Assembly (NCBI GenBank): GCA_973895155.1
Contig: OZ316892.1
Span: 19,353,769-19,417,768 of the forward strand
Direction of reading: 5' to 3'
From: Marsupella aquatica
Lineage: Eukaryota; Plantae; Marchantiophyta
DNA: 64,000 nt
This document shows, piece after piece, positions 40,423-63,992 of this stretch. Both the position numbers and the translations under genes were made by a program. How positions within the stretch are numbered: position 1 is the stretch's first letter; each line of letters begins with the position of its first letter. The notes below the pieces were generated by a model. The model did no database searches. It was not told the origin of the DNA and saw nothing but the letters and a program-made list of their open reading frames with translations.

Positions 40423-43400
40423 CTAATCATCTCTTGTTTCCTCAACACTTCCAACAACTCCCGAAGAGTCAAGTCCTATGATTTCCTCCTCTCCAACTCC
40501 TATCTCTAGTATTGGTAGAATGGTCTCTTGAACATCAACATCTAAATCCACCATGCCTTTGCCATCATCTTCCTCAATGTTGTCCACCAGGTTTAGAATT
40601 CTCCCTTTCAAGACACTACTCTAGCGCTCATCAATTTCTATAGCAACACAATGTCTTCCTTGTGCCAAAGAGGAAGACAATCCTGTGCCTGACCCTGAAC
40701 AAATATCTAGCACCCAGTCTCCAACCTGGCTAAAGTGGGTAACTTCCCAATCCAATAACACTCTTGGCTTTTGGTAAAAGTTCACCATCTTATTGTCCCT
40801 ATTGTGTTTCAACTTATTGGTCACAGCTGGACACACAACCACATTATTTCGAGACTCATTAGTCTCAAAATTGAAATGCTCCAAAGACCGTTTCCCATCC
40901 TGACTATGAAAGCCAATGGTGAAACACTCAAAATTGCTGTTAAGCCTTGCACCTCCTGCATTCTTAACATTGTCTTTCACCCTGCAAAAACCAAAACTTG
41001 CATTATGGATTTGTTTCAAAATCAAACATCATGAAATCATGAACACCAAAAAAACATATTCACCTTTTGAAATGTTTCTTACCAAATACAATTCTGGAAA
41101 CCACCATTACACTCAGCTTTCAAGACAGTCTTGACAACATCATACTGGTCAATACTATGATGAATGATAATTCGCCAAAGATTTGCCTTGGTGACAACCT
41201 TGAAGGACTGAACCATCTTGGTCACCACTTCCACACCCCATCCAACATTGTCTTCGTGAAGACAAGCAGTCATTCCAAACCCATAAGGAATATCTGCCAA
41301 AGCCAATGTGTAAGCTCGTGATGGGATTACCTCGTGCAACCTCTGAGCATCGGGTGTAAAGATATCATAGTACACATCCCCAAACTGTGGATGCTCAAAA
41401 GCATTAGGATGAAGTTCACTTCCCTGGGTCTCTTGGCAAGATTTCTTCATTACCAACCAGTTCTGTGCTTGTGCAATATGTGCATTGAACTTATTTGGGA
41501 AGGACTTCAACTCTTTGCTTTCTTCATTCTCTCCCTTCTTTTTCCGGGAGCTGCTGTCTTTCTGAGAAAACAAAATTGGGTACATGAGATTCCTACATAC
41601 TTAAGAATAAAACTGTAAAACAAATGCTCAGTCAATCTCAAATAAACTTACCCAAGTCTGGAAGATAGGAACAAAATTCTTCAGCACATTATCAGTGCAG
41701 TGTTCTGGGTACTTGGTTTTGCAATTCTTGCAACTCTCTTCGTGAAGACAGGTAAGAAATGCTTTTTGAACTTGCATTTGGAATTTGTGTCGTTGAAATT
41801 CCTGTCCCATCTCTTGAAGAGATAATTCCTTTGCCAAAACCCTTTGTAGCACTGGACAGATCATGTCCGGATCTTTCAATGCCTGCATGTGTCTCCACTC
41901 AGTCAACTTCATATCCTCACATAGCATTTTAGCATCTCCAGACTTGGACATCTTTTTCTTGGTCTTATCTCCTTTCTGTCCTTTTATCTCACAATTCTCC
42001 CATCTGTCAAAGATCTGCCGTATGAAAGACCAAACAAGATCCTTACGAAATGCCAACTGAAATAAATTATCATTGGCATTCAGAACCTCAGAATCTTTAC
42101 GTACACCCCAGTCCTTTAGATTGATTTCAGTGGCACACTCCTTCTTGAAATCAACATTTGATGATGATCCATTCTCTACAAATCGCATGTGAATGTAATT
42201 CACTCTTTGGATGGTGCTCATTTGTTGATGAAATTCAGAGTCTATATTATGACTCCAAGCTAAGTTCCTTGCTTCCTGGATAGACAGACCTGCAAAGATC
42301 CAAGATTGCACTCTCCTGTACGACTTGTTGTTGGGAAATTGTAATGCTAGGTCTACCTTTGCACAAGCAGAATGATTTCCCCCAATCACGTAATAGTGGT
42401 AATCATTCTTTTTTGAGAAATCAAAATCAGCTCGAGTTGGGCACTCCTTGGGATCAACCACGAGAACAAAAGGTGATGCCAATGGACTAGCTCCAGCTGC
42501 TTTCATCCTTGTTGTCAACTGTGTAAGAAAGTAGGGCTGGATATGCCTTACTTGGTACACTGGCAACTCCAAAGATTTCTCCCGAACAGGTGGGTGAAGT
42601 TGTGCAATGTCAATTGTGATTGTCTCCTCTTGAACTCCACACCTCATCAAAATCCCTTCCTGGTACACCACCCGAGCATCCATAGACATAGATTGAGCCT
42701 TCTGCTCCAGATGAGTGGGGACTTTTTCTAACGTCTGCTTCTTGGATTTTGGTGGACTTGGTCTTGCACCTTGAGAACCCTCTGGTCCACGTTTCTTTGA
42801 TGAAGTCCGAGTACCGGCAGTGCCCTGTGCTGATCCTCCTGTCACAGTTGTCCCCTCTTGTGATCTTGCAATTTGTGAACCAGCACCAGATATTGGAGAT
42901 GTAACAACCATCTTTCTTGCTGGGACAGAACTCGGACGAGATCCGGAAGGAGCAGAAGAAGGACCAGACTTTGGTGGACGGGCACTGGCACTCTTCTCTG
43001 CTGCTTTTCGAAGAATCTCCCTAGACTTTCGAATTGCACTCTTCAATGTGCTGGCATGATGTTCAAACACAAAACCAGCAATGAGCTCTGCAATCTCATT
43101 GTAGCTTTCTTTTGCAGACAGATTCTTCACCTTCTCAATAATCATCTCAATGTCATCAGGCAAGTAACAATGCGCAGCTCTTCCAGAAAATCTCTCACTG
43201 TCAACTGCAATCAGTGTAGATGTCTCCTTTGTTGTGATAAGCATATTGAGGACATCAGCCCCTCGTCGAAAGACATCAATCCGGCCATAATTCACCCAAC
43301 CAAGACCTCCAGAAGGCAAGGTCTCGTAGATGCACAACATCAAAAAAGGCTTCTTCCACGATTCTGTACCCAATGATATTGTCCAGGAAGAGTTTCCAAA

Positions 43401-43466
43401 ATCTGTCAATGGATGCTCAACGAAAATAGCGTCTAACACCTTCTCCTGTGATTTTGGTTCAACCAT
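40423..43466 (-). CDS. ParB/Srx-like domain fused to a beta-class amino (N6-adenine/N4-cytosine) DNA methyltransferase; three coding exons, one late in-frame stop
   Basis: Exons 43466-41652, 41561-41083 and 40981-40621 (to 40423 if TAG was CAG) join in frame through GT-AG introns of 90 and 101 bp. Motifs: YYVIGGNHS (ParB/Srx-like), LALADIPYG (motif IV), YQKP, VLDICSGSGT (motif I), CVAIEID (motif II). Confidence 0.85.
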
Positions 43467-43789
43467 TCTGACTTCCTGAAATCAAGTCCAACAATGCAAA
43501 GTCAGCTCTATTTGTTTTTCAAGTTCAGTTGCAGAATTCAGGTTCATGATTTCATGAAGCAAGGTTCTTACCTTGACAGTGTGAGTCGGAAGTTGAATTT
43601 GCAGCGCCTGAGCCTAGACGGTTGTTCCCGCTTAGAAGAGTGTCACTGGTATTTTTCTCCCTGATTTTGGCTTAGCTTATGTCCTTCACCTCCCTGGCAG
43701 ATGCTCGAGCTGATCGACCCCTCCCCACTTACTGTCGTTTGCAATGTACTACTCGATTTGGACCTCGTCTCTTCGTCAATGGACCTCCC

Positions 43790-44300
43790 CTGGCCCTTCG
43801 ACAGTTTCTCCTCCCCCGGCCTTCGCCAATTTCTTCCTCCCCTGGCGCTTCGACTATTTCCCCTCCCCCAACCTTTGACGCTCGCGCCCATTGCCTCGAC
43901 AATTTTTCTTCCCCCCGCGCCTCGACAATTTTTCTTCCCCCCTCGCTCGCGCCTCGACACTTTTTCTTCCCCCCGGCCTCGACACTTTTTCCTCCCCCCG
44001 CGCCTCGACACTATTTCCTCTCCCAGGCCTTTGCCAATTTTCCCTCCCCGAGGCCGGCGCTTCTTCCCCGCACCCCTGGCTGCACCTCGACAATTTTCCC
44101 CTCCCCGAGGCCGGCGCTTCTTCCTCGCGCCCCCGGCTGCGCCTTGACAATTTTTCCCCTCCCCTCGGCCGGCGCTTCTTCCTCGCGCCCCCGGCTGCGC
44201 CTCGACAATTTTTCCTCCCCCCGGCCTTTGCCAATTTTGCCTCCCTCCCCTGGCCTTCAAGAATTTCTCCCCCGTCCCCCGAATTTTTCCAATTTCCCCC
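43790..44300. repeat. C-rich/G-rich degenerate tandem array upstream of the methyltransferase gene
   Basis: Repeated CCTCGACA(A/C)TTTT(T/C)C.TCCCCC units and ~60-bp CCGGCGCTTCTTCC..GC.CCCC.GGCTGC.CCT.GACAATTTT units. The ORFs here are low-complexity by-products. Confidence 0.85.
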
Positions 44301-45251
44301 CAGGCCTGAGACAATCCCCTTCCCGAGCGCAAACTTGCACGACAGCTTTTGATCTTGCTGCCTCCTAACCAAATTTCCTCCACTCCCTTCCACGATTAAT
44401 CCTCTGTTCCACGACCGATCTGCGCCTCAACAGTCAGGAAATTACAGAGCTGCACCAGATGTTGGTCCGCCCCCGATTTTCGTTCCAGTTTAGGGATTCA
44501 ACCCAACTCCTATTCAGACCACACCAATCACTGAGGGAAGAGCTTTCCACAGCACCAAGCATCAGCCCACCATAGCTCTTCGCCAAGCTTCCTTTCCGTT
44601 CGCCCTTTGCAGATGCACGCCCACACTCCAAGCACCTGACAATCCAATTTGTCTCAAACTTAGCATTTTCTAATTTTTGGGTTCATGAATTCATGAAGCT
44701 TTCGCCACCTCCACTTCAGGATCCAGGAAGGTCGTAACCCTTCATGAATTCATGAAAGGGAATCTAGTATCATTTTGAAAGAATCTAGTAAAAAGTCAAA
44801 ATTTGGGCCCAAAATAACAAATACCATGGGTAAAAGAAATACAAGAAAAACCAAAAAAACCTCTAAAAATAGAGGTCATCAAAGACATTTTTTGTTGCAA
44901 TTGAGTAGTCTCCAAAAACATCAAAGAAAACATGGGGTAAAAATGACCAATGCATTACTGATACACTATCTTAAGAGTTTGGCATGAAAACATATGCTTT
45001 AAGTAAAAAATAAAATTATGAGAAGACTCACAATATTCAAGGAGAAGACTTCACAGGAATGAATTAACCAAGTCTCCAAGAACTCTAATGAGTATTAGAA
45101 ACTGAAAACATAAGTAAACCTGTGAGATTTGGATAAATAATAAACTATTTTCTCATGAAAGATTTCTTTCCTTGTCACTAATTACTAATGAAGGGCGTGG
45201 CCCTTTTTCTTATTTTATTGCTAATTAAGTTTTTGAGTTATTTCCAAAATC

Positions 45252-45260: not shown

Positions 45261-46802
45261 GGCTTCGTATTCATGACTATATCTCATTTCGATTTTTCAG
45301 TTTGAGTTCATTTGGTGTTCTAGGTGTTCCCTTGTGAGTTTTGTGCAATTTTTGAAATGGCAGCCTGTTATGAGTCAGACGATTATTCTGATGGTATTTC
45401 GGATGATGTTTCCTTCCCGGATTGTCCTTGTCCTGTTACTTCTCCAGATGCTCCTAGTAAAACCACTATTTTGGAGATGCTTCCCCCAACTCCAATGAGT
45501 AAGTTGAAAGGAAAGGCTCTAAGTGTACCAAATATTCAGCAAAAAGTATTTGGTCCTTGTCTGAGTGAGCACTCTGAGTCTTCGGACTCATCTGAGAGTA
45601 CAAGTCCCCCTGGCCGTCAAGTATTATCGAATCCTTCTCAAAGGGGGGCTAAATTGGGTGTGCGTTCTGTAGGCCCTCAACATAGTGGAGATGTGAAAAA
45701 GAGGACTCATGAATTCATGAAGGCCAGATCTGGAGATGTGTCAAAAATGCCTTGTGAAAGCCCAAATGTGGATTTTTGTGCACTCCGGGAAAGTCGTGGT
45801 GTGCAACATGCACCAATGAAAGAGAGTGAGTATTCTCGTCCTACATCTTTCAGATTTCAAGAAGGAGTGAGAGCGGAAACAAGGAGGCTGCTTGGAACTG
45901 AGACTAATTCGAACAAGGAGAGGATCAATTTGAGAAGATCTCCAGGGAACTTCGATCGTTTGGCTGAGGTTGGAAGCGGATCTAAGTTGGCATACAACAA
46001 GGGCAAGAAGAAGGTCTTTGAGGAGATTCCAAACAAGAGGCCAAGAGAGTCAACCGAAGGTGGTTTCTTTGGGGATTCAGATGGAAATTGATCAAACTCA
46101 CTCATTTTGAGAGTGAAGGAGGAGCCATTGAGTCCTCGAGGGCCCGCTTGAGGCCGGGTGAGGAGGGGTTTGTCTGCATACCACACAACTACATTATCAG
46201 GACTTTTTACGTGTTACATGAAGACGTTAAGCCCGACGTCTCCTTGCTGCTAAAGAAAGGCGACATACTCGACGTGAATGACGGCACGTTTTGTACGAAG
46301 TAACAAAGGTTACAGTTTACATCGTCCAAAACTACGTTACATACGTCAGTCCATACTACGTTACATATTAACGTCGTAAATAAAGACGTTATTATGGACG
46401 CAGATTGAACAGGGAAATCAGCTGATAACATCGTTTAAAACGACGTTAATTTCAGATTACGTAGTTTGTGACTTTGTTAATGATGAGTCTGTCCAGGACG
46501 TATGAGTAGTTAGTCGTGTGAGGCTTGGTAAAAATGGTGTTAACGAGAACGTTTGAAAATAGTATCAAGAATGGAGAGACGTGAATGGAGTGCCGTTTGT
46601 GGTAAACATTAATCTTGTATGGAACATCCTTCCAGGCTACCTTAGTTGGGTGGGCTTTAGGTTTAGGTTCATATACACACGGAATACACATAAAATAGAC
46701 ATATGAAGTCCGGAATGCCACTATAAATGGGTGGCGTCAAAAGTTTGTGCCAAAAATGTACAAAATGTAGGTGGACGTCCACCTAGTCATGGATGGTATA
46801 CC

Positions 46803-47063
46803 CTAATGCCGTTGAGAGCGGCTCCTATCACGTCCAGACCTACGAACAGAAATACGTGGCGGTGCCTCCGACTGTTTGCCTCGGGGCCGCAACTCGTACC
46901 GAAGTGGATCCTCGTCTGAACTACTGCTACCAGACACCAACTCCACAGCTCCCTTGCCTCTACTCCTAGGGACTACATCTCTAGTGCCACTGTGTCCCCT
47001 AGTGGTATCCCTCTCGACACGGCTCCTCTTCCTCTCTCTATGTCTCTCCCTCCCCCCCTCTCT

Positions 47064-47095
<32 letters not shown>

Positions 47096-49006
47096 CGTCG
47101 TCTATGGCTGGTATGACCCCTATTAGTCTCCACTGGAGGGAGAGGTTAGAAGATGACCGGCCCTGTGTACCTAAACTGCCCTCCTGCCCACAGTCTACTA
47201 AGGCCTCCTCCTGCGTATCAGGCTCCTCCCCTCCATGATCTGCCTCCTCATCTTCCGCAATGGGTCGTGCCACTAACCCCTCTGGAGGACTCCAATCCTC
47301 CTGGATATGACATAAGGGATCAGTTTACCTCCTGCAAATAGTGGATGCAAAACCTAGTATAGAAGGAACCTAACCTGACTATGTAACTTACCATTGGGTG
47401 GTCCTCCGGGACTGAGTCCAGCTTAGCCCATAGGGCCGCCGGGCCATAGCGTTTTGAATAGAGCCGCTTCTGCTCACTTGGCTCGGCGTTAGCTCCAAAC
47501 TTGCGTTTCTGTAGGAAATTGGAGAACGTCGTCACCATCGTCGTTAACTACAATGTACCTAACGACGTTTTATAATTAACGTCGTCCAAGACAAGGTATA
47601 TAGTGAAACTTCAATATTAACGATGTAGAAAAGACGTTAATTAAATGTAACGTCGCGAGAGACGACGTTAGGTAGGATGAACGTAGGGGGTCTAGACGTT
47701 AAATTTAGAACTTGCGACGTTAGAGGAGAAAAACGATGTTAATTCAATGTTCTCACCGCAGCGGCCGAAGCATGAACAAGTTGTGCTTTGAAGAGGGTGG
47801 GGGACTTACATAGGTTGCAAGGAAGCCTCGCCATCCTCCCTGGCCCCAGAAATTGGTCACACGCAGGCGGCCATTTGATTTGCGGGCTGCAGCAGCTTTG
47901 TCCCCCATGTGCACTCGCTTGCCTACTGGGGTGTCAGGTGCTGCTTCCAACTCAGCCACGATCAACTTGAAGTCGGCGTCGCTCATTCCTTCTGGTTTCA
48001 GGTATTGCTCTGTCCTTGGGCATCTCATTTTTCGAACCTTGTTTCTCCATCTAAACCTCCGATCTGCAAGGTAGCCTACGATCTTTTGTCTGATGTGCCT
48101 ATAGTCTATTTCACGGTCGTTCCTAAACCCAACTTGCACATCGTTCAGGAGGAGCTGAAACTTCTTTGGGTTCTGCACGAGATCCTTCCAAGTTGTCCAA
48201 CCAGGACAGTGCTTGGCACAACACGTCTGCACTCGATTTGTGAGGGCCTTCTCATCCAGAACATCCGGCCTAGCATCAAACGCATCCAAGGTGATGGTTG
48301 GGAGTTTGTCTCGACTCACAGCAGTAGTTACCGGTCGCGCAGGAGAAGGTTGTCGCTTCTTGTGGGAGTGACGTTCACGCTGAGGTGAGTACCTCTCTCT
48401 TCTGTCTGCCCTTGCATCTCCCTTTGTTCTTCTTCTTTTGTATGTACCTCTATTGTGTGGATCTGCATCTCTATACTCCTTCCCTTTCCCCTTCCGTCTT
48501 CTCTCATCAAGGCTGCTATTGCTGTTGTGTGTTCTATCACGATGCCTCCTCCGCCTGCGAGAGTCCCGATCCTGATCAGGCTGGAATCTGTCATGTGCTA
48601 CCCGGACCACACTCTTGATTGGGGTCCCACTAGGTGCCTGAGAATCAAGCTGCATTCCATTGAAGGCAGGATCGTCCCACCCATCATCTAGTAGGGACGG
48701 GAAGGAGTTCAGAGCATCGATCGAAGGCCCCCCATCCTCCCCCAAGAGCGTTGCATTCTCAGTTTCCACATAATCATCGAGGGTAGGAGCATTGGCCTCT
48801 ATATTTTCCAGGTACTCCAGAAACTGAGACTCCTTGCTTCCTTTTCCTCCCAAGAACTTCCAACTCTGGTTGAAAGCATGGATCAGCGAATGTGTCGATT
48901 GCATAGCTTTACGCACCTTTTCTAACTCCCCTGGATCATCCATAGCCACCAAGTCTGCATCAAAATCTCCACTGGAAGGGAGATAGCCTGGATGAGCCAT
49001 AGTCAT
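46803..49006 (-). CDS. TnpA/Ptta-EnSpm-like accessory protein (spliced)
   Basis: Exon 49006-47810 contains YLADRRFRWRNKV..KPEGMSDADFKLIV..AARKSN..NFWGQGGW. The next exon is 47508-47392. The 3' exons are uncertain. Confidence 0.6.
47025..47095. repeat. (CT)n-rich microsatellite
   Basis: Imperfect CTCTCT run. Confidence 0.8.
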
Positions 49007-49421
49007 TCACTGTTAAGATAGGAGGTCGAGAGGGGGAGAGGGGAAGTGTTGAATGTTGAATGTGAGTCACATTCAAGTCACTTCCTGATGTTTTGTTAAA
49101 GGAAAACAGCCGTAGCCCACGAACCTTGGAGACCCGCCGTTACCCTAATTTAACGTCATTAATCACAACGTTAACCAGGAGTGTAGGGTTTAGCGGCGAC
49201 GTTACATATAATTACGTCATACCTAACAACGTTAACTTATTAAGTACGTCGTACATTATTACGTAAACTAAATTCGGCAACCTCCCCACAACCTAAAAAA
49301 CGATGTTAATTTTAGGGGAACGTCGTGTGGATGGACGTTAGTTTGGTTAACGTAGCGGGATATGTTTATGCTTGGGGTTTAATATGTTGTGGGGGCCTTT
49401 GTAAATTTGATCACAGGGGAC

Positions 49422-50956
49422 ATGGCAACCTATGCATCGGACCATGATGGGGGCAGGCATCATCGGCACAGATACCATCATCATCATAGGGGGACGTATG
49501 ATGAGTCGGATAGGCGAAGGGATGACTCGTGTGACGATGACGATGAGCATGGCGGTAGTTCTCACCGACATAGACACCATCATCGGCATAGGAGGAGTTC
49601 AGCTTCATCGGGCTATAGGAGCAATGACGAGCGGCAGAGGAGGAGGGATGACGAGGGAGGGAGGAGGAGGGATGACTCATCCTATGAGGACCATGGTGGG
49701 GGTACTTACACCCGACGCAGAGATGACCATCATCATAGGGGGAGGGATGACTTGTCGGACCGGGAGAGAGATTACTCACCAGACATGTATGATCGATCTA
49801 GGCGTCACCGATCCAGGCGTCGTCGACGCAGACATGGTTCCGACGGTAGGAGAGGCCGGAGCCCCCATCATGCTGATGGATTTGGAGAGGCCATGGCTGC
49901 TCTTCAGGGGATTGGGCCAATTCGCAAGATGCCTTGCCCTTGCAGACGATGCAAGGGTGTTGTCTTACACGAGAGGACCACTGTCCTTAGCCATTTAGGG
50001 ATCCATGGTCGTTACACCCCCCCGACCCAAGAGGTAATACAATTTTGTTGGGTATTGCAATTATGATAACATCTCCTTCCTTGAATTGTTTTTTGATTGT
50101 CATATTCTGAACTTGTTTTGGTGAACATGTGGAACAGATTCCTGTTGTAGTGCGATCTTCGCCTGTGGACCGCTTGAGAGACATTGCATATCGTGCACTC
50201 GCACCACTCGTCCATCCATCCGATTTGCCAGCCACATTGAGGGAGATAGACCGTGTATTTCGGAGGAGGAGGAGAGTGTTTAGGATGCACCCTATTGAGA
50301 GGGGAGTAGTGGTGACCACTAGACCCCGATCGATTGAGTCCCGTCCACCTAGGATTGTTCCGCCCCGATGCCCTTTTCTTGATGCATCGGTGTCCCGGGC
50401 ACCGAGACAGTTGCGAGGGAGAGCCTTGGACATCTTAAAGGACTCCTTCCCAGCCCAGTTTGGACTCCCTATGGACCTCCCGCTTCGGGAGCCTATTATA
50501 GTTTGGGACCGCCCATGGGTCATCCTCCCCTCCACATTGGGGACTCATGTAGGACTTGGAGTATTTGCTCTTGTGGATATCGTGGTCCCTACCGGTTGTG
50601 CACCCGATGATTTGCCTCAGTTGTTTCCATTCTATGGGCCCAAGTATTTGGCGGCAAGATGGCGCATCTTGTCCCGACAGTGCCCAACCTTTAGTCGATA
50701 TGGCATGTCACTAAAGTTGGACCCTAGGTATGCTCAGATTGATGGTTACCCACCTCGCACGGGGAACTTGGCGGGTTACATCAATAGCACTATTGGTTCT
50801 CGGCGTTCAGGGTTTAGGCCAAATGCTGAGTGGCACGAGTTCCATGACCAGAGTCACCCTCGTTTGCCTGTAGCATGCACGCATTACATCTTGACACATG
50901 CTACCCGCACCATTAGAGCAGGGGAAGAGATTCTCGTAGATTATGATTGGCATTGA
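49422..50956 (+). CDS. Putative spliced protein: His/Arg/Asp-rich region, CPCxxC..HL..HG zinc finger, SET domain
   Basis: Exon 49422-50033 joins exon 50138-50956 in phase 0. SET motifs VGLGVFA, NLAGYINS and ATRTIRAGEEILVDY; no internal stops. Confidence 0.72.
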
Positions 50957-51089
50957 TGTTTACATGTGTACATGACATATTCATTATGGGGTGACCCTTG
51001 AATTTTTCATTATTGATGTTTCACTGTAAGCTTTATCACGGAAACCCTTTCTCTAATTGTTATTTGTCATTGCATATTGAAAACTCTAG

Positions 51090-54000
51090 GATGGTGTACA
51101 TATTACTCCCACACCTCACCCATCAATGATGACTACATCAGCCCGTGCCTTTCACGTACGTGCCACCTTACATTTCTCAGACGAGGAGGATGCTGAGGGT
51201 CAGCCCCTTGACCATGATGAGATGGACGATGAGGATGAGGAGTACCATGATGCATATGATGGAGAGTTGGATGATGATGGAGAGTTGGATGATGATGTTG
51301 ACGATGAGGGAGATGAGGGAGATGAGGGAGATGACCCTATCCTTGAAGAAGATGCCTTTGCCCACCTTGTTGACGTTCACTTTGGACCTCATGCACCTGA
51401 CGCCGAGCACCCTATCATGGAAGTGGATCAAGAAGATTGGGATCACTTGGAGACTGAAGCCAGAACACCACTATTTGAGGGATCTCCATCCTCATGGTAA
51501 GGTTGTCCTAAAATTATCACAACTCCGGAATTTCATCCAGTGAATATTGGGCAGTCTAAATTGTAGTGCCAGGCATGCCATCTAGCTACTTGGACTAACT
51601 GCAAAAAGTCTGGTGTTTGTGGTTTTGCAAATCCAGGTTGGGTGCAACTTTGTTGATGTTGAATTTGCAAGGAGTTTTCAATGGTTCGGATGTCCATACA
51701 GATGCACTCTTCCAATTGTTCCACGACAAACTCTTGCCCCAACCAAACACTCTCCTTGGATGTGTGAGGGAGGCTAAGAAGTTGTTAGCCTCAATTGGAT
51801 TGGCTTTAGAGACTATCCACATGTGCCCAGGTGGGTGCATCTTGTATAGAGGGGTGTACAAGGATCACACTCACTGCCCAGAGGAGCACTATAGGCTTCC
51901 ACGGTATCGACCAGACACCATTGGAGACAAGATTGTAGAAAAGGTAATGTTTTCCTCAACGCAATGTGAGAACAAGAAAGTCCAACTTTTAACGTTGCAT
52001 TCTTTCAAACAACGTCGTACATGACTATGTAATTGATTACTTTACGTCGTCCATCTCACTTTATGTCTTTCCACCTGACGTTTTTTTGTTTTTACGTCGT
52101 ATGGGATGCAGTAACTAACGTCGCATGGTACATTAGGGTATGAAACATCGTCCTTTACGATGTTAGTTTTAATAATACGTAGTGTGGAAGGACGTTTATT
52201 GTGATTGTCGTCAAATTGACGACGTTACATTGGATCTGGCAGGTTTTTCGTTATTTCCCAATCACTCCCCGACTTCAGCATCTCTACCGACGAAAGCACT
52301 TATCCACACTACAGACTTGGCATGTGGAGAACAAATCCCCACCAGGGATAATGCAATACCACCAAGATAGTCCAGCGTGGAAGCACATTGATGCCACTTG
52401 GCCAAATTTTGCCCAGGAGCCAAGAAATGTTCGTTTGGGGTTGGCAATCGATGGAGTGAACCCATATAAACAACGACGGAAGCCAAGTCCATCTGGCCTG
52501 TTCTTTTGATAAATCAAAACATCCCTCCATGGTTGGCAATGAAGAAGGGTCATGTGCTTCTATTAGCTATAATTCCTTGACCCAAGGCCTGTAAGAATCC
52601 TGATATCTGTTTGGCTCCAGCTTATGAAGAGCTACATAATCTATGGGAGGTTGGAGTAGTGACAACAGATGTCACTCGTGAAGCAGGCAATGGTAGGACC
52701 TTCAATATGAGGGTGATGATCACTCATTGCACCACAGATGGTCCAGGTAATTCATTGGGCAACCCAATGACTATTGTTTGCACAATGTCATGTACAATGC
52801 AAGTGTTGGGGTTATTTGTGGTCTGAACATGGTTCAATGAAATGGCAGGTATGGGGACAATATCTGGCCTGAAGGTGGCAGGTTTTTCAGCTTGCCCTTC
52901 ATGTGGCCCAGAGTTGCGTGGGAGGTACTCAAGACTATTGCACAAAACCACATATGAGGGCAGTAGGGTCCGGTTGGCAATGGATGACCACTTGCGACAA
53001 AACACAACACATTGGGCAGAGACTGAAGTGCGGCCATGTCCTAATGGCCCTTCAGCTGAAGGACAAATTCAAATGGCAGAGAAGGTGGAAGCAAAGTTAC
53101 TAAAACCCAAGGATTGTGGAGTAAACCGACGCTCAGCTATGTGGGACTTGCCTTATTGGAGGGTAAGTGATAGAAGTGCATGGTTCCTTTACAGCAAATT
53201 AGACCAATAAAATTCTTAATTTAGAGATTGCAACTGATTCAATATGTTATTTCAATTTCCAGAGACTCCAGGTTCGATGGTTGTTGGACCCCATGCACAT
53301 TGAAGTGAATGTTGCTAAGAACTTGGTGAAGCACATTTATGGGACGAATGACACTCGTGGAGTCCGAGAGGATGCTGAGAGGGTTGGAGTAGTGAAGAGT
53401 TGTTGGATAACACGTACTGGGGAGAAACCTCCTGGTCCTTGGATTTTTCCAAGAGAGGTTTTGAAGGACATGAATGGGATGATAAGCGAGATGAAGTTCC
53501 CTAGCCATTACGGAGCTGGTTTTCGTGGGTGCACTACAAGGAATGATCACATACCCCCAATAGGGTTGAAGTCTCATGATTATCACAAGTTGATACAGCA
53601 TGTGCTACCAGCAGTCTTGCGTTGTTGTGATGATTCCCGGGAGCGTCGTTTACTCCGTCTGACTATATATGAGATGTGCTCCATTTTTAGGTATGATAAC
53701 GTACCCTCTCTTCCATTGCTCTCTTGCAAGTTCTTGTTACCGCTGAAGGAGCCATGTAATTCAACAAGTATTTCAAACTCATTTTTCTATGGCCCTATGT
53801 GGATCTGATATACAAAATCTTTGATGGTTTTGAGGAGGAACATAGGTGGGTATGCGCTAAGGAGATAAAGGAGTCTGAGATTCCTTTGATGAGAGAGAGG
53901 TCAGCTCGCGTGATGTGCAATATGGAGAAGGTGTTTCCCCCATGCATATTTGACATGCAATTGCATTTACTATGTCACTTGGTGGATGAGGTCGCGATTG

Positions 54001-55075
54001 CTGGTCCTGTCCATGCACGTTGGATGTATTGGGTAGAGCGCTTCATGAAAGTGCTCAAGTCCATGGTGCGTCAACCAGCTCGACCAGAGGGAAGTATGGC
54101 AACGGGGTATATCATGTCGGAGTGCCTCTTTTATTCCGGAGGGATGATAGGGAGTTTGGACACAGAAGCTCCCACAGCTTGGGAAGAGGCACAAGATGAT
54201 GACAATGGTGGGTTGCGTTTGATGGGTGCATCAAAAAAGCGTTCACTACATGACAACATACTTCGCCTACAGATCCACAATTATGTGTTGGGAAATCGCC
54301 CAGAGATGTCTCAGTGGAGGGAGTTGCATAGGTACATATATGCAACTCTATATAATTGTTAATCTAACAGTAGACGTTGTTCTACATTCTATGTGTGTAG
54401 AAGTTAGAGTGGGTTCAAGGAGCACTTCTTTGGATTGTGCAATATTCTCATGGATTCATACATTTTTTGCAGTGCATTCTTGGAGCAGCAACCGATAGTT
54501 GCACAACGGTATGCATTATTTCGCGTATGGGCATTGGAGCGCATGGATAGGCTCCTTGCAGAGCATGAACCCTTATCCATTCCCATTGATGTACAGAACA
54601 TCATTAGGGGACCAGGGTTGTGGGCAATGACCCATACACACATGTATGAGTCAGGGCACCACTTTCGCACTTGGAGGACAGATCACATGAAGAAGAGTAC
54701 ATGTAACTCAGGAGTGTTCATGTTGACAGACCCAGGTGATGTTGAGATTCCCTATTGTGGCACTATATTGGATATTTTAGATGTTCACTTTGGGTCATTT
54801 ACTACTATTGTGTTAGAGGTGCGGTGGCACAAATCCATCATGTCACCTCCACATAGAGCCACCATGGTGAAAGATGAGTGTGGGTTCTATCGGGTAGACA
54901 CGACTCGTGTAGCACCATCCGGGACTGAGGTTAGTGACACTATAGTAATACACTGATCCTAGCCAGGTGGATCAGTGTATTATGGTTCCGATGCACACTA
55001 TGAGAGGATGGTCCATCGTCATTCCCATCTTCCCACGACGGAGGAAGGGTTTGATGGCATCAGTAATTGTAGATG
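51090..55075 (+). pseudogene. CACTA TnpD-type transposase, exons 2 onward (exon 1 at 49422-50033)
   Basis: IHMCPGGCILY, FRYFPITPRLQHLY, DSPAWKHID..EPRNVRLGLAIDGVNP, LDPMHIEVNV, GLKSHDYH, GPVHARWMYWVERFMKVLK..PEGS, YCG.I.DI and DECGF. GT-AG introns; a frameshift near 52475 and stops near 52578 and 54954. Confidence 0.92.
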
Positions 55076-55604
55076 ATATGGATCCATGACCATAAATGTA
55101 TTCGGTGCATGTATATATTCGTTATGGCCACCTTCATGTGGGTTTGTAGCATCTGTGGGTAACGTCGTTGTATGACTATTACGTCCGGTAGACCAATGTA
55201 TCTTCAAACTACGTCGTATCAGGCAGACGTTAATTCCAATTAACGTCGTTTTATTGAGCCTTCAACGATGTTAATTTAGCCACAACCCCATTTACGTTAC
55301 TCCACACGACGTTGATTCTCCACTTAAAATGATGTTAAACTAACTTACGTCATTTTAGGGTACGTATTAAACCAAAGACGTCGTGTATTGCAACGTTACT
55401 ATATCCGCGCGACGTTAATGACAGTGGTGACATTAATTGGCACATGCATTCAAAATGAAAAACATGAGGGAGTCTTTATTCAGTTTCAGTATGATATAGA
55501 GATACAAAGGTCCTACAAAGCACATTGCATGTCCACCACAAAGCGACTATAACCTAGCCAAATCACTAAATTGCCTCATCCATTGACATCCAGATTGTTG
55601 CTAC

Positions 55605-56165
55605 TTAAGGAGTTCCTTCACCAGACCAGTAGTACTCCTCATCTGCCTTCCTTCTTTTGTAAGAATCACGCCTCTGCCTCTGGTTCCATTTCTTGCGGAT
55701 GACCTCTTCCCCAGCCTTTAGCCTTTCAGCCTCAACCTCAGCTGCACAACTTTCCTTGTAATCATACAAGACAATGTGAAGCTCAGTCGGAGACAGCTCA
55801 CATTTGGGCAATGTAGGTAGATATGCTTCCCCATCATCTGGGTTGGGCGCCTCATCCAACATCTGATCATCACCTGGATGCAGCAGGAAGTCTCCTGGAT
55901 CCAACTGTTTGTTGGCCAGAATTGAGCACTCTACCCAACGGATAGAAATGAAATGAACTGTCTCTGCAAAGTGCTCGATCAATCCATGGTAGTCACTGAA
56001 GTGCTCAACAACTTCTTTCCACGTATAGGCCAGCAAGTAGTCTGTTTCCGAGGTACACAACTTCTCAATAACACCTCCCCGACAAAAGAACCCACGTATA
56101 GTCTTGTCCTCTTCACCAAGTGGAAGGAAGCAACAATGCACATCTTTGAAGAACTTGCGCACCAT
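55605..56165 (-). CDS. Hypothetical 186-aa protein inside the CACTA element
   Basis: Stop-free ATG ORF with protein-like composition, bounded on both sides by the element's repeat blocks. No recognised domain. Confidence 0.5.
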   Translation of the reverse strand: MVRKFFKDVHCCFLPLGEEDKTIRGFFCRGGVIEKLCTSETDYLLAYTWKEVVEHFSDYHGLIEHFAETVHFISIRWVECSILANKQLDPGDFLLHPGDDQMLDEAPNPDDGEAYLPTLPKCELSPTELHIVLYDYKESCAAEVEAERLKAGEEVIRKKWNQRQRRDSYKRRKADEEYYWSGEGTP

Positions 56166-59100
56166 GACTGAACATTGAGTCTAGATCCCACGCTGCAATT
56201 TCTCTGTACTCAGGAAGAGTGCATTCTCCAAAAATCACAAATGCAAGCCTACTTTGGTCTCAGCACTCTTAAACCAAAATCCTCCCGTAGAAAACCCAAG
56301 CTATACTCGAGTCAGCATGGACTACTCCTCATTCAAGTCGTCCACACCGATGTACTCAACGTCTAACATGGCTTGATTCAATTGGAACGTCCTACAGAGC
56401 AACGTTACCACTTTTACGTCTCCCTCCACGACGTAAACATTGACGTCGTTATACCCTAAACACATTACGTCCTCTAATACGTCGTTAATATTGAACGATG
56501 ACCAAAACGACGTTTAGGACAGCTCATCCAGAGACGTTAATTTTAAACGTGTTTCCAGCGACGTTAAAATGGGGGCAATCAGCGCTTAGATTTCTCCGAC
56601 GTCGCCGTTATGTCGGACGTAGTTATAAATGTAGTCATGGAAGTCGTTAATTATATTAACGACGATTATGAGGAGGTATTGTTTGCATCCGACGCAACAA
56701 AATCTAGTTGTGCCAACTCGATAAACTTGTGGAGATATCTTCTTCAATCAAAGAATCTCCTTCTGAGAGTGATGGAGAGCCTGCAGAGAGAGTTATGATG
56801 GCTAATAAACGACCGTCAAATCTCAGCTTGTGTGAAACAAAGATGACAGACGAGGATATCAAGAAGACAAATCGTAAGTACTGCTGTCAACGTCATTGTC
56901 TCTTGAGTCTTTCACCAAAACAAATTCGTGAAGCACGCTCAAAGTTTTTGAGGCAAAAATCTCAGGATCAATCTTTATCTTTGCAGTGGCTCGTCAAGCA
57001 AGACGGAAATGAAGAGGGGAGGTCCAATGTCACATACATGATTGGACAAAGAGATGTGTGTCGGAAAGCTTTCAAGATGGTCTTTTGTGTAGGAAATGAG
57101 AGATTGAATAGGATCAAGAAGCTAGGCAATCAAGATCTTGCTTATCCTAGACCGGCTGGTCGACCTCCATCTGTGAGAACATTGGTATTGAGCTCTTGGT
57201 TGAAGTCTTTTTTTGAGACGCGTGTGGAGACTCTACCAAATAAAGATGTTTCACATTTGCCTGATAATTATTCCAAACTAGAAGTTTGGAAAATATATGA
57301 TTCAAGCTATGTGATCACTGATGAGTCATCCAAAATATCATATCGGCAATTTTTGAAAGTATGGTCACAAGACTTTGGGCATGTGAAGATTCCTCCTGTG
57401 AATCGTTTTAGTGCTTGTGCGGACTGTGAGGAATTCAAAACGATTCGAGACAAAGGAGTCTCTGAAACTGAAAAACGTAAGTCATTTTCATTTTTGTTGT
57501 TTTGAACATGTCTTTGTATTAGATTCGTCAGGAAATCAATTGAGTAATGGCTAAACATTAGGAATGAATTTCAAGTTAACAACTTTGCTCTACCATTTTT
57601 TGATTCATTGCAGGGAGAGGAGAAATAATGTTACAAAAACATCGAGAACAACAATCGAAAGAGCGGGAAAAACTAGCAAAGCATCGAAAGAAATGTTTCA
57701 CAAACCCAGAAAAATATTTGGGAGTTGTGATTGATGGAATGGATCAAAAAAAGACTAGATTACCCCATTGGCCACGTCCTCCAAAATCCGTTGATGAGGC
57801 CTGTTTAATCCAAATGCATGTGGTTGGTTGTCTTCTTTTCCATGGAGCACTATTTTCTAGGGTGTTCCTTAATTATCCAGTTCTCCATAATGATGGAAAT
57901 CTTACCATTACTATTTTACAAAGAGTATTCCTAGAATACCAAGAGAAGTATGGGGGCCTTCCACCAGTTTTTTACCTTCAGCTTGACAATACAAGTAGGG
58001 AAAACAAAAACAATTTACTTTTCACATATCTTCACATGCTGGTACAAAAAAAGGTATTTCGAAAAATCAAACTTGGATTCCTCTTAGTTGGACACACCCA
58101 TGATCAAATAGATTAGATGTTTAGTAGGTTCTCAAAAAGGCTTGGAAGATTTAAGGCCTTTACCTATGATAGTTTATGTAAGATTATTCAAGAATCTTAC
58201 CAACCCCAACCTGAAATTACCCTTTTAAATGAGACATATGATTTTCGAAAATTTGCTTTCTCAGAGCCTGCTTTGATCAGAGAAAGGATACGAAATGTTA
58301 CTTTTCATCACCAATATAAAATTTCTTTTGCTTGTGAAGATGATCAAGTTCCAACACAATGGGGGAAGAAATTTTCCACCGACACGGTTTGGAAACCAGA
58401 AGGAGGTGTTAAATTGTTGAAAGAAGACATGCCACCAAAGGTGATTGGGTGCTCTGATGGGATGCCACTTATCAAGAAAGGAGACAAGAAACGAGATGAC
58501 GGAAGGGCGGGAAATCAAGCTCATGTATCATCTTCAGGAAAAATGACCTTGTCCGAAATGGATGATTGTTTGAATGAAATTCAAAAAGGTATATTTGCAG
58601 CTCAGATATTATTCTCGGAAGAAGAAGTTGTTTGGTGGACTTCTTTTTTTGAGGAACAAAGAGAATTCAATCGATCTCTCTTGCTTGAAGAAAGACCTTT
58701 GATCTCTCCATTTGAATGGCCCAAGGCACAAGGGGATACAAATGTTGAAGCTGATCTCGGAGCTGAACCTCTTACAACAATATTGAATGAGGAAGAAATT
58801 GAAGAGAGAGTGTACGGTCCAACTAGAGAAATTTATGTTGGTCCATATCGAAATCAAGAAAAGATAGATGCAGAGAAGGAGAATATGGAAGGTGATTTTT
58901 CTGATTTGGAAATCAACACATTTATTTCTGTGGCCGGAGAGAAGTCTGAATCATTTTGGGTGGCTAAAGTAGAAAAAAATGTTCTTCGCGATGAGGCTCA
59001 CATCCCAAAGATTATCTCAGTTCTGTGGCATGCAGCAAAGAAAGGATCCGACCCTTGGAAAGGAAAATATCTGCCAGAAGTGTTGAGTTACGAGAAGAAG

Positions 59101-59323
59101 AAAAGTGGACGAGGCAAGGGAACCTTGAAACCAGTTTGGTTTCGTCAAGACCTTGATCTGTCTTCAACTACGGTCTTTGCATATAATTTTATGCTAACAA
59201 GGTCTGATACTCTTTACAAGAAAACAATAGATCGTATTAAAATACGACTCTCAGAATTTCTCAAGGAGGAGAAAGACCAAGAAGGTGAAGGTAGCATAGT
59301 TAGAAATTATCAACAAGAAACTT

Positions 59324-62300
59324 TGTGATGCCTAGACAGGAATCACTCGGCCGGTTAAGTGGGTAAAGCAGGAAGGCACCCTAGGAACACCTTAGTATAG
59401 GGACAAAACAAGGAAAATATAAACAATTAGGGGCAACCATGGAACCCGGGCCGAGGCCAGAGGTAAGGCTGAGGGTGAAAACCCGATTAGGGTTAGGGCG
59501 CGTTAAGCGTCGGCGGCTAGGAAGGATCAACGGGAAGAAGGACCGGCGGAGGAGAGGGGTAAGGAGCGCTTGCAGGAGATGGTGGCTCATTTGCGAGCAC
59601 GAACTAGGCAGACGACTACGAGAGGCCAACTACTGTCAGCTGCTTAGGCAAGCACTCGGGGAGAGAGTAGATACCGACGATCGACCTAAGGAGGGTATGA
59701 GCAACGTCAATCAAGCGGCACATTTCTGGGGATGCCTGTTCGAACGGGCAACTGAGTACATCAAGACTTACGAGGACGAGGAATCAGAAAGGGCAGCTCG
59801 AGAACGGCAGGAGCTCGCTCGATTGTGGGAGCTGCAGAAGACGGCTTTCTTAGGAGGCGAACTCATCAAGGACGAGTTCCTGTGGACGCCTACTTCCAAT
59901 CAACTCGACGATCTTCTGTTTTGCAAAGACAGCGTCGTCGGCATCCGAGAGGCCATCAAGAACTGCAACGACATACACTGGGAATTAAAGGGTAGCACGG
60001 AAAGGTGGACCCAGGCAACGGTGCTAGGAGAAACCTCCACGGCAGCAGAGATGAAGAGGAAGGGAGCCGTCAACGATGAAGCCACCCCGGCAAAAAGAAC
60101 GAGGTCGGCGGCACCAAAGAAGCCAGTCGAGCAGTAGAGCAGGAGGCAGGGAGAAGCCGAAGAGGAGGAGGTCGATCCCATCAAGGCCATTCCAACCAGG
60201 GATGACACCTGGAAGGGCTGGGCGGCAACCCTACCGGTGGAGGTGCAACTACATTTTGCATGGGAGGAGGATGCATGCTTTACGGCCATGCAGACCAAGA
60301 AGTACCAAGGCTTCATGGCCGGATCCGGCTTGGAGGCCTTTGTAAGATTACCATGGCTGAAGCCGGAGGTACCGGAGTCAGACCTATTAGAATTCGTGGG
60401 GTCATGGGAACCCGAGACCAATTGCACGAGGATATATGGGAAGGATTTCTATCTTACTCCCAAGGTAATTGCCGAAGTGTTTGGCCTGCCGATAGGCAAT
60501 AAGACCAAAGTTGATACCAGGAAGACCTTGCCTGACAAGGAGTTCCGGTCGTTCCCCGGGCCATCAACGAAGAATGGCTTCTTCCGGAACACCTGCACCA
60601 ACCCGCACATAGGAGAGATGATCGACTTCTTGCGGGTGACCATGCATTGTAACTTGCCGAGGGCAGAGATCGGCAAGGCACAGGTCTATCTGGCAGAAAG
60701 GCCAGACCCAAGCCGGGACTACAACGGGTACCTCCTCAACCAATTGAAGAAGATCTTAAAGGAGGATCAGCAGGTAATCGGCATGGGGAGCGTGTCGCGG
60801 CTGGGCTATCACATGCCGCTGTTGTGCAGGTATGCCAGAGGTCAGACTTTTGCCCCGGTACTTCCCCTGCAGGTAAGGGCACCCGAGGAAGCTCCAACGC
60901 CGAGGCCGTTGGCTGAGAAGCCTCAACCACCTGTTAGTCCTACTATCGAGCAGGTGTTTAGGCCCAGGAAGGAGGACTTGCCGATGCAGCAACCAGGCAT
61001 GTAGAGTCTGCTGAAACTACTGGAGAAAGAAAAGAAATCGGCATCGGCAACAACAACGGCAACGGCAACAATGCAGGACACTACTACAGAGGTAGGCCTA
61101 CACCGGCTCACAAGAGAAAACCCCTTTGCTGGAGACAAGGAGAGAATCAGGCCGGAATCCAAGCCTGGTGTTCGAATGTACGTGGGAACCTCAAGCTCCG
61201 AATCTGAGGCAGAATTGCCTAAAGCTCCTACCGACGAAGAGGAGAGGGAGAAGCCGGACGTCCAAGAGGTAGAGGAGGCAGTGAAGGACTGCAGCCATGA
61301 GAATACCGGCTATGGGTCGGACCATCACGTTCCAGGAGTAAGGACTTGTGGCCGGTTTGTCCCCACACTTCCAAGGGTAGTGCGAGGGGACCCCAACCAA
61401 CAGAGTAGCCCTAAGTCTCCCCCACCAGATGTTGCTCCCCCGAGCTTCGACGGCATAAAACAGACGGTGCAGGAATTTCAGGAGCGAATCAAGCAAGAGG
61501 AGGAGGCCGCCCTGGCTAAGGAAAAGGATTTACCAGGAGGAGATTGGCCGGAGGACATCAGGCGGCTAGCCAAAAAAGGAAGCAAACCTCTAGCCACGAT
61601 TGAAGAGATCCGCAGGACGGCTTGGGAGCAGAGGCCGCGATGGGCGATGCCGATCACTTCTACTTACTCCACCTATGCTAAGAATAGAGCCATGGAGTAT
61701 GGTGAGATGTGTGGGGAACTTGCGCTCGGCATCTTTGGAGAGGAGTTGGAGGTAGGACCCTTTTTCCATAGGGAGCAGTTGGAGAAGCACCAATTAGAAG
61801 AAGCGGTGGCTTTAGAGAGAAGCAAGAAGGACGAGGTCATTCGACGGCTTAGGAGGATGGAAGCCGAGATTGAAGATCTAGGGGCGGCCAAGAAAGCCCA
61901 AGATGAACTGCGGATTAAACGACATGAGCTGAACATCATGCAGGGGTAGTTGGACACCGCGCAGGCTGATAATCAGAATATCAAGGATAAACTGACTCAG
62001 ACGCAGGAAGAGTTGGCCGACACGATCAAAGAGAGGGAGAAGTGGAAGCAAGAGCTGAAGAATACAGAGGAGGCCCACATAACAGCCAACAGCCGGGCCA
62101 TGGCGGAGACCCAAAGAAAGGAATGGGCGTTGAAAGGGGAGCTCGAGAAAATCCGCGGAGCCCTTGAGCAGAAGGAGGCCGAGTTAGGGAAATCCTATCA
62201 AGGGATTATGGCGCTGCAGCAGGAGCTTGCGTCCCTGACGGCCAGCTTCAAGGCCGACCTAAGGGAGAAGGACGAGATGCTCGAACAGACTTACGCCAAG

Positions 62301-63992
62301 ATGAACCAGATGGAGTCTGTCATCATTGCAGAGCTCGACAAGGAGCTAAAAGCAACCCAGGAGGAGAGGACTACCTTGAAACAAGAACGGGAGGAAGCCC
62401 AGAAGGAACTAGAGGAGGCACGCAAGGACCTGGATGAGACCCAGGAGGAGTTGGAGGAAATCACGAGGAAGATGGAGAACCTCCAGCGGCGGGCCGACAA
62501 CCAAACGGAGCGGCTGAAGAAACAAGCCGCAGTATTTAGGTGCTTGTCTTCATCAGGCCCAACTCCAATTGGGGCAACCAAGTTACCAGGAGTGGTACTG
62601 GCCGAAGAAAAAGCCGCACCAACTGCACCAGTGCCAGAGATAAGTGGGAAGGGGAAGGGACCAGCTGCCGAACCAGAAAAGAAGAAAAAGCGGAAACCTT
62701 CAGGGTCAAGGAGTAATCCGACTCCACAAGCCGTGGTGACCAAAGAGGTAGAACCAGCACCATCCTCCGACATGAATACGGCAATAGATCCCGCTATGAT
62801 CACAGGTAGGGATGGTGCGGCCCAAGCCGAACTACTCAGTAAGGAGGCCAGTATTCCAGATCCGCCTCTTGAGCAGGCCGGGGAGACCGTAGCCGAGGCT
62901 GAGGCCGTAACCGATTCTCAAGCCGATGCCGACGCCGATGGTGGACCCAGTCAGGCCGATGGAGAGTTGACTCAGTCAAGGGCAGGTAATCTGTCAGGGA
63001 ATGAGCCTACGGCAGTGGCTGAGGAGGAAGCGTTGGGGGCGTCCATTAAGGATCCACCACCGGTGTCGTGACGGTGCAAGGGCGCCGTTCCTTTTAGGGA
63101 GGGCGGACGTGGAGGGAGGAGGCGTGAGTGGGCAGGGCGGGCATGGATCTCCACGTTTAGGATTAGGATCAGAACCAGGAGCGGCCCTGACACTTAGCTT
63201 AGTGGGATTGCGGTCCCACTGGTAGGAGCAACACTTGTGCTCCTGCCTTGCTGTACATAGGTAGATTCGGGCAAGTAGATTACTGTTAAGTAGATTAGGC
63301 TTACGATGCAAAGAATGGCGGATCCACTACCAGGATAAGTACCTGGGCAGCGGGGAGCTCAGGGCCTCTTCTTTAGCAAGTTTTTAGTTTGCACCAGCCG
63401 GGCTGGGATCAAGTAGTACGAGAAGCTCTCGGTTAGTCATACAGTGACCCTTGTGTATATTCATGTTTCCTCATGCCTAAGAGCTGAATAGAGTTGGCCT
63501 CACGGCTTAGTTCGCAGAACTTGTGTATGAGATGTACTGTTTGTATGGCAAGTGCATGGTATGACTCAGTCAGAATGAGTCATTTTGCTATTTGTGTGTC
63601 GCATTAACTTGTGTGAAGAGTGCCCACATCAACAGAAGGAAGGAAAGTAAGCAGGGGAGTGAGAGTTGGATGTGTCGAGCTAAGAGAGGTCTTAGCGGCT
63701 TAACCAAGCCTATTGGGGATCATTCCGGCGGCGGAATCCAAACATACCTAACAAGACGGAGGGGAAGACAGGGGAAGACAGGGGAAGGCCTATATTAGGC
63801 CGGCTACGTATCTCATGACCCGATGAAGGATCTGTCCAGTATATGTGTGTAAAATGTTAATAGTAGTAGTAGAAGGTTAGCAGCGTCCCATGCCACTAAG
63901 CCACGGAAACGGCCTCGCCAAGCATGAAACCTGCGGGAATCGGCTTGAGCTGGGGGGTTTCTTGGGTGTAGGGAGCCATGGGACGCACCACA
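59324..63992 (+). mobile_element. Family A copy 3 (4669 bp): probable 5' LTR of an element continuing beyond the window
   Basis: TGTGATGCC...GCACCACA followed by TTTTTGGC, the same start as the family-B PBS, and not by a copy of the left flank AACTT. Confidence 0.92.
59439..63071 (+). pseudogene. LTR ORF of family A copy 3 (three TAG stops at 60135, 61002, 61947)
   Basis: Single frame colinear with 11184-14807. Each stop replaces a Gln codon of copy 1. Confidence 0.92.

Follow-up and report, generated by a model that had tools for sequence, protein, structure and literature searches.

The DNA analysed here (hereafter the window) is a 64,000-nt stretch of the genome of the liverwort Marsupella aquatica (assembly GCA_973895155.1, contig OZ316892.1, positions 19,353,769 to 19,417,768, forward strand), and all coordinates below are positions within it. 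It contains an EnSpm/CACTA element of 10,529 nt (46184–56712) whose transposase gene, TnpD, has eight predicted exons. The predicted first intron of this gene contains a further open frame, encoding a protein with a predicted SET fold, which could be spliced in phase to the same first exon as the transposase.

A CACTA element with a SET exon in its transposase gene

The element begins with CAC and is bounded by terminal inverted repeats (TIRs) of 12 nt, CACAACTACATT on the left (46184–46195, +) and CACAACTAGATT on the right (56701–56712, −), which match at 11 of 12 positions and give the consensus CACAACTA(C/G)ATT. A 3-bp target duplication, CCA, lies on either side (46181–46183 and 56713–56715), and the termini read CACAA here, not CACTA. 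The TIR and target-duplication criterion for EnSpm/CACTA follows PMC12730594. This signature is weak alone, with three pairs at ≤1 mismatch and nine at ≤2 within the window, which is chance level; the limits are therefore also placed by the ACGT density, which steps up inside them (up to 18 per kb, against 0–4 elsewhere), and by the flanks (45324–46183 and 56716–59328), which when joined give a single reading frame with two stops. The element lies inside another broken gene, likely another transposon, and the right flank continues into DUF7869 open reading frames (ORFs). Subterminal repeats are present at both ends of the element and also internally, no second copy was found within the 64-kb window, and there was no Rfam match over 46000–57000.

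The seven predicted TnpD exons that follow the first (51090–51496, 51637–51943, 52243–52746, 52849–53162, 53263–53690, 53846–54331 and 54473–55089, all +) are separated by six introns of 100–299 nt (59–70% AT). Their translation exceeds the Pfam cut-offs for both Transposase_21 (49.7 bits) and DUF4218 (105.3 bits), and contains CPSC and HKLIQH, read by eye as the C(2)C and H(3–4)H motifs described for the catalytic domain of the superfamily (PMC12730594). Three lesions interrupt the frame: one frameshift near 52468–52476, a stop codon at 52578, and a second frameshift that shortly precedes the stop at 54954. Given these two frameshifts and one stop, this copy is likely not mobile by itself.

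Exon 1, the predicted shared first exon (49422–50033, +, 612 nt, 204 aa, phase 0), encodes a low-complexity region rich in Arg, His, Asp and Ser followed by a C-x-C-x2-C..H finger, with CPCRRC..HLGIHG inside the final 35 residues. The finger matches the Pfam family Transpos_assoc (PF13963) weakly (E = 5e-5, under the curated cut-off). From the phase-0 donor GAG/GTAATA, a predicted short intron (50034–50137, +, 104 nt, no internal AG) leads to acceptor A, AACAG/ATT at 50138, which is the earliest AG past the donor. The SET exon (50138–50956, +) then runs for 819 nt and 272 stop-free codons to a TGA at 50954–50956, and encodes two predicted N-terminal helices, a low-confidence linker and a SET domain at about residues 105–272. 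It is followed by an AT-rich stretch (50957–51089, +) with a branch-like CTAAT 37 nt 5′ of acceptor B, TCTAG/GAT at 51090, again in phase 0. The 104-nt and 133-nt stretches around the SET frame are 68% AT and the SET exon is 47% AT; both flanking stretches look intronic. The earliest Met of the SET frame falls at codon 50, past the two predicted helices, and the region of these helices aligns with most close homologs, hence the frame reads as an internal exon and not as a free gene.

The initial annotation, made from the same sequence, had proposed that exon 1 can join to either 50138 or 51090 in phase 0 and that the first intron contains a stop-free SET-like frame; at the sequence level these coordinates and phases hold, and the 819-nt frame scores above the Pfam SET cut-off. 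It had also contrasted an intact SET exon with a broken TnpD. This contrast carries no weight, since 0.67 lesions would be expected in 819 nt at the TnpD rate (P(0) = 0.51), and the intact state of the SET exon is thus uninformative.

The intronic exon encodes a predicted SET fold

The SET exon product matched the Pfam SET model with 24.8 bits (cut-off 22.4, E = 3e-5), as did 41 of 47 aligned sequences at E ≤ 0.01, these being the window protein and 46 homologs picked for near-full SET coverage. When used as a single query against PDB sequences the protein gave no match at E ≤ 10, whereas profiles and the fold search do match. The predicted structure, modelled from 18 sequences, has a mean predicted local distance difference test (pLDDT) score of 71; Foldseek returned 323 PDB matches at E ≤ 0.001, with every listed match a SET protein or SET-containing complex. 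With VIA-align the best match was SET8 (Z 12.9, root-mean-square deviation 2.4, 121 aligned residues), and Set1, SET7/9 and EZH2 effectively tie with it, their best Z-scores being less than 1 apart. The Pfam score and the predicted model both agree with the SET fold proposed initially.

GxG is the cofactor motif of SET methyltransferases, and it is present as G139 and G141, as is the ELxFDY motif in the form EILVDY with its terminal Tyr. Conservation across the 47 sequences is high at each of these and other key positions (G139 in 45, G141 in 46, N216 in 41, N229 in 46, E264 in 47, Y269 in 44). By sequence, the protein falls in none of the named SET subfamilies, and its family forms an unclassified one that lacks the motif II His and the post-SET tail. 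We class it as a SET-domain protein, not as a proven methyltransferase.

The SET exon is conserved and under purifying selection

A single-sequence search found 17 relatives among 1,804 candidates (45–63% identity) and a profile search 129 related clusters. Ten clusters were looked up and included five from Riccia sorocarpa, two from Calypogeia fissa and one from Ginkgo (distant, E = 3e-7); among SET homologs with a named source, the closest to the window protein comes from Calypogeia fissa, at 46% identity. In a midpoint-rooted tree of the 47 sequences, the window protein groups with P0001 and P0002, and the nearest named sequence is Calypogeia P0008. No relative was found among 18 pattern matches in viral contigs or 13 in prokaryote genomes, and the SET proteins of a viral fold library showed ≤22% identity, none of them close.

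A more distant group within this His-less SET family (P0129, P0080, P0086, P0087, P0105, P0111, P0136 and P0152, including a Ginkgo gene model) lies outside the 36-sequence clade that contains the finger-linked members, and may represent the source family or other carriers.

Two of 58 metagenome pattern matches encode relatives. One of them, L002 (50% identity), is ACG-rich upstream and has a low-complexity exon ending in the finger, a phase-0 donor (GAG/GTATGA), a 144-nt gap, a SET exon after CAG, a stop, and a phase-0 acceptor (TTCAG) into an exon that matches the 51090 exon of the window with a score of 82, reached by none of 1000 shuffles. The other, L001, has the finger followed by SET, and its sequence stops short of a recognisable second exon. 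The donor and two in-phase acceptors are therefore seen in both sequences long enough to hold them, the window and L002. The initial annotation had asked whether other copies of the family carry the exon; its presence in sibling elements is supported, as is a two-acceptor layout that recurs in a distant relative, L002. Of 209 proteins fetched, the finger is present in 25, of which 17 additionally have SET sequence; in one 423-aa protein, from a contig of 2,141 nt, finger and SET lie in a single frame.

Pairwise comparison of the window with the two relatives for which DNA was available gave pN of 0.37–0.40 and pS of 0.73–0.84 (dN 0.5–0.6, dS at least 2.7). The SET protein is under purifying selection, as it has been kept while synonymous sites became saturated. 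This largely refutes the idea of neutral Pack-CACTA cargo, in which a fragment of a host gene would have been captured recently, even though CACTA elements do take up host sequence (PMC13317346) and the SET exon of L002 has one in-frame stop. The exon also occupies the same place beside the finger in Riccia gene models and in the two metagenome loci, and no close host SET gene was found among the 129 profile clusters or in PDB. The conserved SET exon is thus genuine and maintained by selection in a CACTA lineage of bryophytes.

ACGT-core arrays and the other ORFs of the element

Six non-coding blocks of the element, chosen by eye, are densely filled with an ACGT-core motif. Two are subterminal, on the left (46184–46800, 16 ACGT) and on the right (56200–56712, 14 ACGT). 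The others lie just 3′ of a leftward ORF (47340–47750, 9 ACGT, which may be an intron or 3′ region of that gene), between divergent start codons (49010–49421, 10 ACGT), in a TnpD intron (51944–52242, 9 ACGT) and between convergent stop codons (55091–55450, 12 ACGT). Together the blocks hold 70 ACGT in 2,611 nt, compared with a mean of 9.5 and a maximum of 22 in 2,000 shuffles; this corresponds to 26.8 per kb, against 1.6 in coding sequence and 1.2 outside the element. The remaining introns are nearly free of arrays (2 ACGT in 871 nt, 2.3 per kb). The longer word ACGACGT is found 21 times in the blocks; the 6,330 nt of coding sequence contain none, and the 53,471 nt outside contain one. CpG observed/expected ratios are 1.5–2.3 in several blocks, compared with 0.1–0.7 in most TnpD windows.

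The leftward ORF (47753–49006, −, 417 aa) is divergent from the transposase gene, and 49010–49421 is likely a bidirectional promoter region. The 417-aa protein matched no Pfam family, and its atlas scores were below 0.9; solely from its position it is a candidate for the motif-binding protein, in the role of TnpA. Pfam identified no TnpA family in the element. A 173-codon open frame (46803–47324, −), 3′ of this ORF and past the ACGT array, may be a further exon of the same gene. A convergent ORF of 191 aa (55605–56180, −) has a C-terminal helix and BRCT-like scores of 0.81–0.88, under 0.9; it had no Pfam or PDB match and its model reached a pLDDT of 45, and BRCT identity was not confirmed. The initial annotation mentions neither the arrays nor these two further ORFs of 417 and 191 aa.

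Proposed function and alternatives

From an open SET frame inside a CACTA transposase gene, kept by purifying selection in a repeated splice-site layout and accompanied by motif arrays, we propose the following reading. A predicted choice of 3′ splice site would yield either a finger-SET protein (476 aa) or a finger-TnpD protein from one pre-mRNA, and the two phase-0 acceptors make such isoform choice probable. The finger-SET isoform would methylate lysine on the chromatin of cognate element copies. Targeting could come from the basic N-terminus and finger that both isoforms share, or from another element protein bound to the ACGT arrays, and the methylation would help the element stay expressible against host silencing. 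We put the probability of this reading, taken with its hedges, at about 50%. Its parts differ in strength. Catalytic activity is evenly balanced between yes and no; a histone substrate with an anti-silencing outcome can be put forward only tentatively; and a fully self-contained system, with a tail-less SET enzyme aimed at the ACGT arrays and writing an activating or Polycomb-opposing histone mark, appears unlikely. The alternatives address different steps and are not all mutually exclusive.

Several results weigh against the proposed reading, beginning with splicing. DNA is available for only two related loci, and acceptor B is reached by only one of them. No AATAAA-like signal follows the SET stop. 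All four of the fetched proteins with transposase sequence also have SET sequence, and no protein with finger and transposase yet without SET was found among the 209, a set biased by its SET and finger queries, the latter partly derived from SET fusions. A TnpD-exon query for full-length transposases gave none in 131 candidates. Most of the finger-SET fusions are gene models of Riccia, which come from an annotation pipeline mixing ab initio prediction and cDNA (PMC11735767), so that models do not equate to proven transcripts.

The want of a finger-transposase protein free of SET would also fit two tandem genes, with exon 1 spliced to the SET exon only and translation of the transposase beginning at a separate Met within the 51090 exon. 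In the window, codons 13 and 14 of the latter indeed encode Met in frame, and both arrangements are known among relatives, with alternative splicing described for maize En/Spm and Arabidopsis SPM3 and SPM7, and tandem genes for SPM2, 5, 6 and 9 (PMC13547354). Tandem genes nevertheless seem improbable here. The finger matches a transposase-associated Pfam family, the gap between the SET stop and the 51090 exon is only 133 nt, and the phase-0 acceptor is kept in L002. There, the earliest Met of the exon after acceptor B is codon 60, past the start of the conserved EEDAF block, hence this exon needs an upstream exon, as no Met precedes the point where the block begins.

A single SET-transposase fusion, which would require splicing from a donor within the SET exon, would have a precedent in SETMAR/Metnase. 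The Riccia gene models P0088 and P0110, the presumed Riccia model P0124, and the protein P0132 do contain both SET and transposase sequence; they join the two at differing points, however, and in most homologs the terminal Tyr is closely followed by a stop. The best phase-0 donor inside the SET exon scores 2.3 in the window, and likewise 2.3 in each of L001 and L002, compared with 3.5–8.9 for the seven predicted donors (from a small training set). The lack of a strong internal donor disfavours fusion, which we regard as very improbable, and choice between the two acceptors is still the preferred splicing model.

Turning to catalysis, the SET motif RFINHxCxPN (PMC3980110) reads YINS...PN in the window, with both Asn retained and the His replaced. 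The initial annotation had noted this replacement and the retained terminal Tyr; both stand, and the change proved to be family-wide, as among 129 representatives the motif was found in 77, of which 75 have Ser and none His. The post-SET tail is absent too, with just 3 residues beyond Y269 (the 64 motif-bearing homologs have a median of 9), and such regions contribute to the cofactor and substrate sites (PMC3868588; PMC3980110). The absent post-SET region, which the initial annotation does not mention, is the likelier defect of the two and casts the greater doubt on activity.

The main rival to the proposed reading is a dead SET fold, spliced and selected, that acts as a reader or decoy binding histone tails or a host silencing complex. 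Besides the missing tail and His, it would accommodate Phe as the first active-site aromatic residue in 19 of the 47 sequences, the window protein among them. At this position, 165, the remaining 28 of 47 have Tyr, and it aligns with a Tyr of LegAS4; from this alignment and the EZH2 motif, F165 may correspond to the position of EZH2 Y641, as a lead only. If so, and again only as a lead, Phe would favour trimethylation (PMC3868588).

A dead fold is at odds with the retention of the GxG glycines, the motif II Asn and the terminal Tyr (44 of 47). LegAS4 is the best PDB sequence match of the family profile (E = 6.5e-6) and aligns RKGNLTRYINFS with the family's RTGNIAGYINSS, so that it has YINF, that is, Phe at the His position. 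This enzyme reportedly methylates H3K14 (10.64898/2026.05.29.728679), hence a missing His is compatible with activity. A partner could supply the missing wall of the active site, compare EZH2, which is inactive by itself and activated by partners (PMC3868588). We hold the dead fold to be a less probable explanation than the proposed reading, if the foremost of the alternatives.

An active enzyme might instead modify a non-histone substrate, be it a protein of the element, such as the transposase, or a factor of the host, and so tune transposition. The fold search favours no histone-site class (Z differences below 1), and the shared N-terminus could place both isoforms in one complex. The CpG-rich arrays, on the other hand, point to an epigenetic conflict, and we rate such a substrate as rather improbable. 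For the proposed reading itself, targeting to the arrays is a further weak point, as there is no direct link between the SET protein and the arrays, and the likeness to VANC and TnpA systems lies in layout only.

Other features of the window

A long ORF rich in coiled coils, measuring at most ~1,200 aa, is present in three nearly identical copies at 11184–14861 (−), 22551–25484 (+) and 59385–63071 (+), with a related fragment at 26936–27652. Two pieces of this ORF were scanned and gave no Pfam family, and it is likely a repeated mobile element. ORFs of 617 aa (41628–43481, −) and 173 aa (41079–41600, −) likewise have no Pfam family; a stretch of the former, YYVIGGNHS, is reminiscent of ParB-like domains. 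A GC-rich tandem array at 43784–44285 (14 copies of a ~26-nt unit) adjoins an inverted repeat pair (43536–43559 and 44740–44763). A 210-aa ORF (38316–38948, −) looks by eye like the ORF at 56708–57505, with a CC..C start and LP..H.LP.N, although tblastn (E = 0.01) gave no link.

Comparison with known systems

SET cargo has been noted from sequence in several transposons, with no assay reported in the sources consulted (PMC12730594; 10.1101/2025.02.11.637652). It occurs in HarbingerS and MuDR elements of Phytophthora (PMC12730594) and in Helitrons (10.1101/2025.02.11.637652), which belong to other superfamilies and hosts and, as described there, carry SET as accessory genes, not as an exon of the transposase gene. 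A further case is Plavaka PAG2 of red algae, in which SET lies in an EnSpm-related transposon beside accessory genes and repeat arrays (10.1101/2025.02.11.637652; relation from PMC12730594). Compared by description only, PAG2 is a gene of its own in which SET is fused to a putative adenine DNA methylase; in the present element SET and the transposase have a predicted exon in common, and Pfam detected no domain of a DNA methylase.

Among plant CACTA elements ULP1 is a common cargo (PMC2528002), which backs the statement of the initial annotation on this point. The literature searched, which did not extend to Repbase and most subscription journals, contained no report of a land-plant CACTA element with a SET exon in its transposase gene, and the whole word 'SET' is absent from the main text of a 2026 review of plant gene capture (PMC13317346). 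SET cargo in transposons is thus known, and its layout as an exon within a CACTA transposase gene is apparently unreported in that literature. In En/Spm, SPM3 and SPM7, of the same superfamily, one unit yields TnpA and TnpD by alternative splicing (PMC13547354); the accessory product here differs in being a SET-fold protein encoded in the first intron.

With SET8, Set1/MLL, SET7/9, EZH2 and LegAS4 the protein shares the predicted fold, GxG, the motif II Asn and the E-x4-Y end. It differs from them in identity (≤~24% in the fold matches), in having no post-SET region and in the family-wide change of His to Ser, a position at which LegAS4 itself has Phe. Some family members are annotated as 'SET domain-containing protein' in liverworts and might be counted in error among the chromatin genes of the host. 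If the fully self-contained system, rated unlikely above, is real, a plant transposon would write histone marks itself by means of a SET subfamily not described before and retained in liverwort lineages distant from one another. The small protein, the candidate target arrays and the kinship of the carriers to the model liverwort Marchantia make chromatin-mark writing by a transposon directly testable.

The arrays recall two anti-silencing systems. In VANDAL elements, the targets of VANC, motif arrays lie in introns, intergenic and terminal parts (PMC5735166), and here too short motifs are concentrated in non-coding parts. Arabidopsis Spm1 has dense terminal motifs for TnpA, which needs host demethylases, lowers DNA methylation and leaves H3K9me in place (10.64898/2026.08.24.746577). 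As described in these sources, both VANC and TnpA bind arrays and cause DNA hypomethylation and neither is a histone-modifying enzyme; the Marsupella element, by contrast, would itself encode a candidate writer enzyme.

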